A stretch of DNA of 64,000 bases from an uncultured Chloroflexia bacterium (GCA_963765765.1 CAVXYC010000016.1:14151-78150); one strand, 5' to 3'; shown: positions 13,505 to 14,983, counted from the first letter of the stretch. The notes: a model not told the origin generated them from the sequence alone. Program-made: numbers and translations.

Positions 13505-13618
13505 TACCGACGCACCTGGAGCTGACCGGTGGGCCGGGAGTCTCCGACCGTGCAGTACCAACTGGCATGGACGACTTGGTGGGTTGCCGGCCCCGTTCGT
13601 AGCAACGGTCTTGGAGTG

Positions 13619-14580
13619 TCAAGCTGGGGATAACTTGGCAGCATTCCAATCCTGATTAGTGGCAATGAGGTGATTGAGGATGCGCAGCAGCTTGCCCATG
13701 CAGGCGGTGAGCGCCACCTTCGTCGGTTTCCCGGCAGTACGCAGCCGCTGATAGAACGCGCGCAGCGCGGGGTTGTGCCGCACGCCGACCAGGGCGCCCA
13801 TATACAGCGCGGCCCGGACATCGGCCCGCCCGCCCCAGATGCGGCGCCGGCCACGCAGGGTCCCACTGTCGCGGCTATGCGGCGCCAGGCCCAGCAGCGC
13901 GGTGATCTCTTTGCGGCCCAGTCGGCCCAGCCCGGCAGGCGTGCCAGGAGGGTGGCCGCGATGGTGGGGCCGATGGCCGGCACCGTCCGGAGCCGCTGGG
14001 CCTTCCCGTGCCAGACCGGATCCTGGGCCACGCGCTCGGCCAGCTCTTTCTCGATCGCGGCCAGCTCCGCTTCGAGCCATTCCACGTGACGGGTGATGCC
14101 GGGGCGGACCACCGGATCCGCCTGCCGCAGGCGCTGCCGTTCGGCGACCAGCACGTCCCGCAATTGCCGACGTCGATCCACCAGCGCCTGCAGCGCCTGC
14201 GTGGCGGCGTCGAGCGGCGGACGCACCGCGGGCGCGACCGCCTCGGCAAAGTGCGCCAGCACGTGCGCATCGAGGGCGTCGGTCTTCGCCAGGCGACCGG
14301 TCGCGCGCGCGAAATCGCGCACCTGGCGCGGATTCACCACCGCGACGGGCAGTCCGGCCGCGGTGAGTGCCGTGGCCAGCGGCCGCTCGAGCCCACCGGT
14401 AGCTTCGAGCACGATGCGCTCGGGCACCAGCGGTCCCAGGGTGTCCACCAGGGCGGCGCACCCGTCGTCCGTATTGGGTACCGACCACCACTGGCCCGAC
14501 GGACGGAGCGCGACGACCAGCTCCGCTTGGGCGACATCAATCCCCACGACGACTGGGGGTGCGGCGGACTCCGAGCTCAT
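13619..14580 (-). CDS. IS110 DEDD recombinase/transposase (frameshift near 13935)
   Basis: GIDVAQ, VLEATGG, KTDALDA RuvC-like motifs; SRDSG Tnp-domain serine motif; GAGGAGG RBS. Confidence 0.92.
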
Positions 14581-14619
14581 ACCACGCCTCCTCATGGCGA
14601 CACTGGCAGTCGGCGACCG

Positions 14620-14850
14620 GCGTCCCCAGGCCGGAACTTGCAGATACGGGCTGAGCGCCCCGGCAACAGTACAGGCTCACGGGACGACGGGCAGAGGTGA
14701 GGCCCAGGCTACAAAACGGTCTCACCGGACCGAGTGCGGATCGGACTCTCACCTCCGGCCGACCGCATTCCAGATGGGCTCGCTGGCCTCGCGGAGTTAT
14801 CCCCACCCCGCGACGACGGCGACTTATCCCCATCTTTCACGCTTCGCGTT
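14620..14850 (-). ncRNA. Predicted bridge RNA of the IS110 element (boundaries approximate)
   Basis: Target loop AUCCGCACU (14741-14733) and UUUGUAG (14715-14709) inside a GAGGUGAG/CUCACCUC stem; donor loop ACUGUUGC (14670-14663) and CAAG (14640-14637). Confidence 0.8.
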
Positions 14851-14983
14851 CAAGATACAAGTGCGGAATTTATTCCGCCGTCTCCCGAACTGCAGCGGCT
14901 CGTGATCGCCAACTGAGCCGTCAGCGCACATGGGTCATGCGGTTAGACTCATTGCCGGATCTGATGGACGGAGAGCGCGGCAC

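Follow-up and report, generated by a model that had tools for sequence, protein, structure and literature searches.

By its sequence, the segment 13601-14861 (minus strand) of the 64,000-nt stretch analysed here, which we call the window (uncultured Chloroflexia bacterium, GCA_963765765.1, CAVXYC010000016.1:14151-78150), is an insertion sequence (IS) of the IS110 family, IS110 group (IS621 type). We consider it very probable that this is a bridge-RNA element of the IS621 type whose ends and guide RNA are intact and whose recombinase is frameshifted, so that this copy is likely non-autonomous. The reading draws its strength from the agreement of several lines: protein homology, an RNA match to a model built from other loci, covariation of helices and of guides with flanks, handshake bases and a split promoter. 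Every defining feature of the IS110 group that can be tested on a sequence is present, apart from an in-frame serine domain, which is confined to sister copies. An earlier, preliminary description of this DNA had proposed a complete orthologue of IS621-type elements; the bridge-element part of this proposal is supported, while completeness has to be qualified: the recombinase of the window copy is frameshifted before its catalytic serine, and the intact enzyme is encoded by two other copies of the genome. All coordinates refer to the whole window, and the element is read on the minus strand. The source genome comprises 6.49 Mb in 33 contigs.

The ends were placed by comparison of copies. Four full-length copies are present in the genome (100, 99, 99 and 94% identity for the window copy, L002, L003 and L004), and the search also gave two partial matches to other IS110-type sequences. 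In an alignment of the four that includes 60 nt of flank, the shared sequence opens exactly at CTTGTATC and closes at GTTGCT in every copy; because it starts and stops at the same bases, the ends are fixed independently, and the boundaries 13601 and 14861 put forward in the preliminary description are borne out. The element thus measures 1259 bp plus one copy of the CT core, and reads CT-TGTATCTTG ... CCAAGACCGTTG-CT between a left flank that ends in GGCGGAATAAATTCCGCA and a right flank that begins with ACGAACGGGG. The CT core stands at both ends in 4/4 copies, and terminal inverted repeats are absent. The left end is long (266 nt up to the ATG) and the right end short (about 18 nt after the stop codon). 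The target TTCCGCA-CT-ACGAA and the circle junction ACCGTTG-CT-TGTAT that had been deduced earlier were both recovered, with all their listed features in place. As for the sister copies, L002 and L003 have loops identical to those of the window copy, and L004 is heavily decayed, with many indels and a deletion inside the left donor guide (LDG).

The long left end encodes a predicted bridge RNA that is recognised by homology. A scan of species-representative genomes yielded 550 stretches encoding relatives, of which the best 80 loci (52-61% identity) were kept; three with less than 300 nt upstream and five in which the first loop did not align (L013, L016, L023, L024 and L069) were taken out, and identical rows were collapsed. 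The resulting alignment, A1, holds 60 distinct orthologue RNAs and the RNA of this element. A covariance model, R1, built from the 60 orthologues with this element excluded, matches the window at 14627-14758 on the minus strand over its full length (78.4 bits, E 5.8e-17), within the region in which the preliminary description had placed the bridge RNA. L002 and L003 obtain the same score and E value, L004 obtains 61.2 bits (E 6.4e-13), and L005, a different IS110 element, 64.5 bits (E 1.1e-13). In A1 the RNA consists of two modules of one design: an outer stem with a bulged A, a G, a variable 5' guide and a short hairpin, then a G, a variable 3' guide ending in AG, and the closing stem. Standard pairs fill 97.3% of the 1555 cells of this structure, against 34-50% when the partners are slid by 1-3 columns; both partners vary in 19 of the 26 pairs, and none of the five measures used was reached in 500 shuffles. 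Across the whole window, 0 Rfam families reach their gathering score, and none was found for the bridge RNA on the strand of the element.

Two side observations concern the RNA. The inner hairpin of the target loop (14717-14732, minus strand), together with the right target guide (RTG) UUUUGUAG, scores as intrinsic-terminator-like, the guide itself forming the U-run. L005 (G000:C33) is a second IS110-family element in this genome, with 67% DNA identity over part of the gene, and its bridge RNA lies at L005:1166-1297 (+).

Because the guides were read at the A1 columns homologous to orthologue guides, and not picked by eye, their matches to the DNA of this element exceed chance. The left target guide (LTG) AUCCGCACU shares 8 of 9 bases with the target TTCCGCACT, and position 1 is often unmatched in the orthologues too. 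The last 7 nt of the RTG, UUUGUAG, pair with CT-ACGAA at 7/7 positions with one G-U. Both target-loop guides of the preliminary description stand at columns fixed by homology. The right-target part of the RTG pairs at 5/5 bases for L003 (ACAAA) and at 4/5 for L002 and L004. For the donor loop, the LDG ACUGUUGC does pair as had been suggested, at 8/8 positions of ACCGTTGC once a U-G wobble is counted, while the CAAG previously taken for the second donor guide makes up only a portion of the right donor guide (RDG) AUCUGCAAG. This RDG pairs with 7/7 donor bases, CTTGTAT, through 9 nt: AU, a bulged CU, a G-T pair and then CAAG. According to the IS621 work, the base after each 3' guide makes a handshake, pairing with position 7 of the non-cognate DNA (PMC11208158). 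The bases of this element fit the rule, with C facing donor position 7 (G) and U facing target position 7 (A).

The guides follow the flanking DNA across the orthologues as well. The left junction of each locus was taken as the nearest TGTAT-type motif upstream of the RNA, which served 58 of the 61 rows (two are without the motif and one has Ns). Left targets match their own LTG at a mean of 4.88/7 positions, against 3.32 with the guides of other loci, and the observed mean is reached in 0 of 2000 permutations; five rows match at 7/7 and 15 at 6/7. The right junction was taken as the best match to LDG+T after the gene (59 of 61 rows scored at least 8/9, and L007 and L084 were set aside). Here, the first five flank bases match the reverse-complemented RTG at 4.41 positions on average, against 1.41 in the control, again with 0 of 2000 permutations, and the right target is perfect in 35 of the 59 rows; many alignment rows are kin, so both permutation figures overstate independence. 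In 48 of 59 rows the LDG and the left donor are the same, and these rows include the variant pairs ACGG (9), ACAGC (2), ACAGG (2) and ACAGTC (1). The handshakes behave in the same way: the target-loop base pairs with donor position 7 in 58/58 rows (56 C:G, 2 A:T), and the donor-loop base with target position 7 in 55/58, of which 48 are G:C and the sole U:A is this element. None of the 60 aligned orthologues carries its pair of target guides; the element therefore has its own specificity, as the preliminary description had held.

A further feature shared with the orthologues is a promoter divided between the two ends. By position arithmetic, the -35 box TTGACA of the right end and the -10 box TATCTT of the left end would lie 18 nt apart on the circle junction, and this junction-made TTGACA-N18-TATCTT, already noticed in the earlier reading, has counterparts in most of the relatives. 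Among 57 loci, 50 have TTGACT or TTGACA as the -35 box of the right end and 46 have TATCTT as the -10 box; 47 keep a spacing of 17 nt, and four, this element included, have one of 18 nt. A consensus scan found 0 sigma-70-like promoters on either strand of the integrated element, and such a promoter is predicted to form only at the circle junction. This absence agrees with the weak expression of the bridge RNA from integrated IS621 (PMC13626964). The 14-bp donor is flanked on both sides by a 4-bp CAAG/CTTG repeat. An unusually long 5' leader, with two GGGGATAA repeats in a predicted long hairpin, separates the -10 box from the bridge core: from the left-end boundary to the bridge core there are 101 nt here, against 12-67 nt in 54 of 57 other loci and 100-124 nt in the remaining three, which makes the leader about 56 nt longer than in most orthologues (L038 and L053 are likewise long).

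The protein-coding part is the broken one. The two domains expected of the recombinase, PF01548 (DEDD_Tnp_IS110, E 1.5e-21) and PF02371 (Transposase_20, E 3.9e-11), fall in two overlapping frames, so that the DEDD/RuvC-like part is in frame and the Tnp part with the catalytic serine is out of frame. The window copy is without one A at CCGG-GCTGG (13931/13932) that the other three copies have, and L002 and L003 are open throughout as one 325-aa protein, P0001; the frameshift that had been marked for checking proves real, a deletion of 1 base when compared with the other copies. In phmmer alignments, residues 17-324 of P0001 match ISCro4 (9t56, E 2.6e-41) and IS621 (8wt6, E 7.7e-41). After adjustment for the PDB chain numbering, which is offset by two residues from that of the paper, P0001 D20, E64, D106, D109 and S244 (in RDSGT) stand opposite IS621 D11, E60, D102, D105 and S241, which form its composite active site (PMC11208158). 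The serine domain is thus in frame in L002 and L003; the deletion precedes S244, and the window copy therefore cannot make that domain in frame. With its recombinase frameshifted and its ends and bridge RNA intact, the window copy is in all likelihood non-autonomous; to move, it would need the two intact copies found elsewhere in the genome. A programmed frameshift was considered and rejected: the site is not slippery, and the other copies and the orthologues are all in one frame. The protein family is very large (7998 of 8000 scored candidates at E <= 1e-30); among these scored candidates, the nearest proteins outside this genome are 85, 79, 79 and 73% identical.

Public sequencing runs bear on whether the deletion is genuine. 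Of 22 listed runs, 20 hold part of the stretch; all 22 consist of assembled contigs, and four were aligned to it, none of which holds more than 0.47 of the sampled words, so that parts without cover carry no meaning. Contigs of X3, a DNA run, tile the element at 95-99% identity, and contigs of X15, a metatranscriptome, cover 13600-13744, 13909-14064 and 14264-14712, also at 95-99%. It is conceivable that the frameshift is an assembly or sequencing error and that the window copy is complete and autonomous, and a single base missing in a G/C-rich stretch (CCGG-GCTGG), present in all other copies and in two metagenome contigs from soil runs, one from DNA (X3) and one from an RNA library (X15), speaks in favour of such an error. 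We nevertheless regard it as rather unlikely, considering that several further differences separate the window copy from L002 and L003, which makes it a distinct copy and not a collapsed one. The protein-database gene on this contig, P0007, is also short of the second domain (359 aa, only PF01548), but comes from the same assembly.

The surroundings of the copies agree with the predicted specificity, as far as three of the four are concerned. These three lie at GGCGGAAT(A/G)AATTCCGCA-CT-AC(G/C/A)A, a target of the predicted type within a palindrome resembling a repetitive extragenic palindrome (REP), whose 3' arm is the left target TTCCGCA (14862-14868) itself. The site of the fourth copy, the diverged L004, is imperfect: CACTCCCCA-CT-ACAGC, with left target CTCCCCA. 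A retargeted insertion was rejected for L004, as its LTG is unchanged; it reads as a mismatched or decayed insertion. Across the genome TCCGCACTAC occurs 24 times, and eight of these sites continue with three purines, as the RTG allows if wobble is counted. Six of the eight exact-fit sites have the palindrome context GGAAT-nn-(A/G)TTCCGCA. Free target sites therefore remain. IS621, ISPpu9 and ISPpu10 likewise insert into repeated palindromes (PMC11208160; PMC12288879; bioRxiv 10.64898/2026.03.19.712850).

One of the aligned runs, X1, contains a contig that joins the right end of the element to 111 letters of flank. The 30-letter consensus of this flank is identical at 30/30 letters to contig C30 of the present genome (G000), beside an unoccupied perfect target, C30:284738; in the population behind X1, therefore, the element occupies a predicted site that stands empty in the present assembly. 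We take this as only a hint of recent movement, from one contig that possibly derives from the sample behind the assembly. The place itself, G000:C30:284701-284800, lies beside L003 and has two inverted REP-like units 30-40 bp apart; one unit is occupied by L003, and the other is the perfect empty target (TCCGCACTACAAA) at which the X1 contig has the element.

A number of observations weigh against the assignment of the window copy to a functional IS621-type design. The folding that the preliminary description had suggested divides in this respect: comparative helices covary, while the single-sequence fold is undistinctive (minimum free energy -120.6 kcal/mol, z -1.81; 8 of 200 shuffles fold equally well), and comparative analysis took its place because single folds are uninformative in GC-rich sequence. 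One outer-stem pair of the donor loop is U-C in this element, and its promoter spacing of 18 nt is not the usual 17 of the family. The L004 site mismatches the left guide once beyond position 1 and the right guide once, and is without the palindrome. The frameshift, as discussed above, could in principle be an assembly error. The RNA-library contigs over 14264-14712 cannot show transcription, ends or strand. The four contig-only runs gave no joints, circle junction or empty site for this locus, which they cannot exclude, and 30 related genomes, which are too distant, hold no empty locus and no close copy of the element; they gave only short REP-like matches (26-29 nt) and partial IS110 matches at 65-70%, the same-genus G001 adding to its REP-like matches a 38-nt match resembling the right end.

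The last of these observations would also suit a family that is an inactive relic in this genome, in which case the guide-flank matches would simply record past insertions; the frameshift of the window copy and the heavy decay of L004 point the same way. We think a relic unlikely on balance. L002 and L003, at 99% identity to the window copy, retain intact frames of 325 aa and the same loops, the eight exact-fit sites, six in palindrome context, are still available, and the X1 contig places the element at a site that is unoccupied in this genome.

Considering the element as an IS621-type system, we propose the following. Excision as a circle would join the right end (TTGACA) to the left end (TATCTT) over one CT, making a promoter, and this junction promoter would drive the bridge RNA encoded in the 266-nt left end. 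The first loop would then pair with both strands of the target TCCGCA-CT-ACAAA, in the 3' arm of the REP-like palindrome, and the second loop with the circle junction ACCGTTG-CT-TGTAT. A tetramer of the DEDD/serine recombinase would exchange strands at CT, one handshake base per loop helping. Circle formation, junction transcription and the chemistry of the tetramer are inferred by analogy with IS621 (PMC11208160, PMC11208158, PMC13626964).

The left-end RNA of such elements can be seen in another way. Before 2024, IS110 small RNAs were viewed as regulators, and the RNA here could mainly be a 5' leader or an antisense-controlled regulator of transposase expression and not a guide. The RNA-library contig over 14264-14712, which spans the donor loop into the coding region, would suit a leader, and both strands of the homologous Xanthomonas region are transcribed (PMC3300014). 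Such a function in place of guiding is extremely unlikely in our view, as it leaves unexplained why the loops track both flanks and the donor ends in some 60 orthologues while the stems covary. The leader role and the guide role are not mutually exclusive.

This Xanthomonas region connects the bridge RNA to a known small RNA. The sole Rfam signal in the window is sX15 (RF02234), on the opposite strand at 14609-14768 (+), with 29.6 bits (E 0.018) for a gathering score of 55. Conversely, R1 matches the Xanthomonas plasmid pXCV183 at 116394-116524 (-) with 67 bits, E 1.4e-15 (NC_007507; L097:1895-2025). There, the Northern-verified small RNA sX15 was published as the plus strand of 116378-116536, and asX7 as the minus strand, 116528-116459 (PMC3300014). 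Because the R1 match lies inside sX15 and on the strand of asX7, sX15 reads as antisense to the RNA: judged by position and homology, it is the strand opposite an IS110-group bridge RNA, whose 5' part is asX7. No IS110 transposase is annotated or evident beside the sX15 locus of pXCV183, and thus this locus may be an orphan bridge RNA. A literature search for sX15, asX7 and RF02234 found no paper linking them to bridge RNA. We put forward, as a quite improbable idea drawn from this analogy, that a natural antisense partner may control the bridge RNAs of this clade; if so, an antisense transcript over 14609-14768 (+) would cover both guide loops and could restrain transposition, a brake of which no description was found in the bridge-RNA literature examined.

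The feature coordinates are collected in the table. Beyond the left end, a divergent gene for an AlkZ-like DNA glycosylase (PF06224, E 2e-61) occupies window 14930-16090 (+), with its start codon 68 bp from the element, and the insertion likely sits in the promoter region of this gene. On the other side, window 12054-13500 (+) adjoins the element with long overlapping open frames of low complexity, rich in Gly, Ser, Ala and Thr; the one such frame searched, 12983-13501, has no Pfam match.

Features of the IS110-group element and its flanks in the window
Feature	Position	Strand	Remarks
Left flank, REP-like palindrome GCGGAAT-nn-ATTCCGC	14862..14886	-	at 3/4 copies; flagged as hairpin
Whole IS110-group element	13601..14861	-	1261 bp with the CT core at both ends; span common to the four copies
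Left CT core	14860..14861	-	copy comparison; CT before TGTAT in 57 of 58 scored orthologue junctions, AT in one
Right donor TGTAT (14855-14859), overlapping -10 box TATCTT (14852-14857)	14852..14859	-	
5' leader between -10 box and bridge core	14759..14851	-	predicted long hairpin
Bridge RNA core, target-binding then donor-binding loop	14627..14758	-	R1 match, full length
LTG AUCCGCACU	14733..14741	-	A1 columns 18-26
RTG UUUUGUAG	14709..14716	-	A1 columns 49-56
Target-loop handshake guide CC	14707..14708	-	first C pairs with donor position 7 (G)
LDG ACUGUUGC	14663..14670	-	A1 columns 98-105
RDG AUCUGCAAG	14637..14645	-	layout as IS621 A157-G165 (PMC11208158)
Donor-loop handshake guide UU	14635..14636	-	first U pairs with target position 7 (A)
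Recombinase gene, broken	13619..14595	-	1-base deletion between 13931 and 13932
-35 box TTGACA	13617..13622	-	overlaps stop codon TGA (13619-13621)
Left donor ACCGTTG (13603-13609) and right CT core (13601-13602)	13601..13609	-	copy comparison
Right target ACGAA, flank	13596..13600	-	copy comparison

The present element leaves the known mechanism unchanged; its protein family has thousands of members, bridge RNAs are predicted in 85.7% of IS110 elements (PMC11208160), and close relatives may already stand in the supplementary orthologue or guide tables of the IS110 papers. What it offers is one natural system decoded from its sequence, with ends, target, donor, four guides, handshake bases and junction promoter. 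It is also a natural experiment: a single genome contains two copies that are intact, one with a frameshift and an undamaged RNA, one that has decayed, and eight exact-fit free sites. This may provide a potential orthologue for bridge-editing screens, and a case in which to study trans-mobilisation and the part played by REP hairpins.

Among known systems, the IS1111 group with its seekRNA elements belongs to the same recombinase family and follows the same RNA-guided principle, and has its RNA in a long right end together with longer subterminal repeats (PMC11208160). Here, in contrast, the left end encodes the RNA, the right end measures about 18 nt, and the donor is enclosed by the 4-bp CAAG/CTTG repeat; an IS1111/seekRNA architecture was rejected on the first two of these grounds. 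The closest match among solved structures is the ISCro4 transposase (PDB 9t56, given above), for which the proteins only were compared. ISPpu10 and ISPpu9 of Pseudomonas putida are IS110 elements found in repeated intergenic palindromes, as is the case here (bioRxiv 10.64898/2026.03.19.712850, PMC12288879), and for ISPpu10 the stem-loop of the target adds specificity (bioRxiv 10.64898/2026.03.19.712850). In the present genome, 3/4 insertions and 6/8 free exact-fit sites are in one palindrome family; unlike in ISPpu10 and ISPpu9, which we know by description, the 3' arm of the palindrome is itself the left target.

The comparison with IS621 of E. coli (PDB 8wt6; PMC11208160, PMC11208158) is the most extensive. 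Both elements have a two-domain DEDD and serine recombinase that aligns end to end, a long left end with a very short right end, the CT core, and no inverted repeats. The bridge RNA has in both a target loop followed by a donor loop, with a 9-nt LTG, an 8-nt LDG, a 9-nt RDG with a 2-nt bulge and a G-T pair, and one handshake base per loop; the promoter is split across the circle junction, and insertion is into a REP-type palindrome. The protein is distant from that of IS621, matching at well under half of the aligned columns in phmmer, and the element has its own guides and target, a U-G wobble in the LDG pairing and the 18-nt promoter spacing. Its RTG pairs with five right-target bases, whereas that of IS621 pairs with two, and five have been reported for some orthologues (PMC11208158). 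The leader exceeds that of most relatives, and the host is a GC-rich soil bacterium. These differences from IS621 and the orthologues are variations within the known design.

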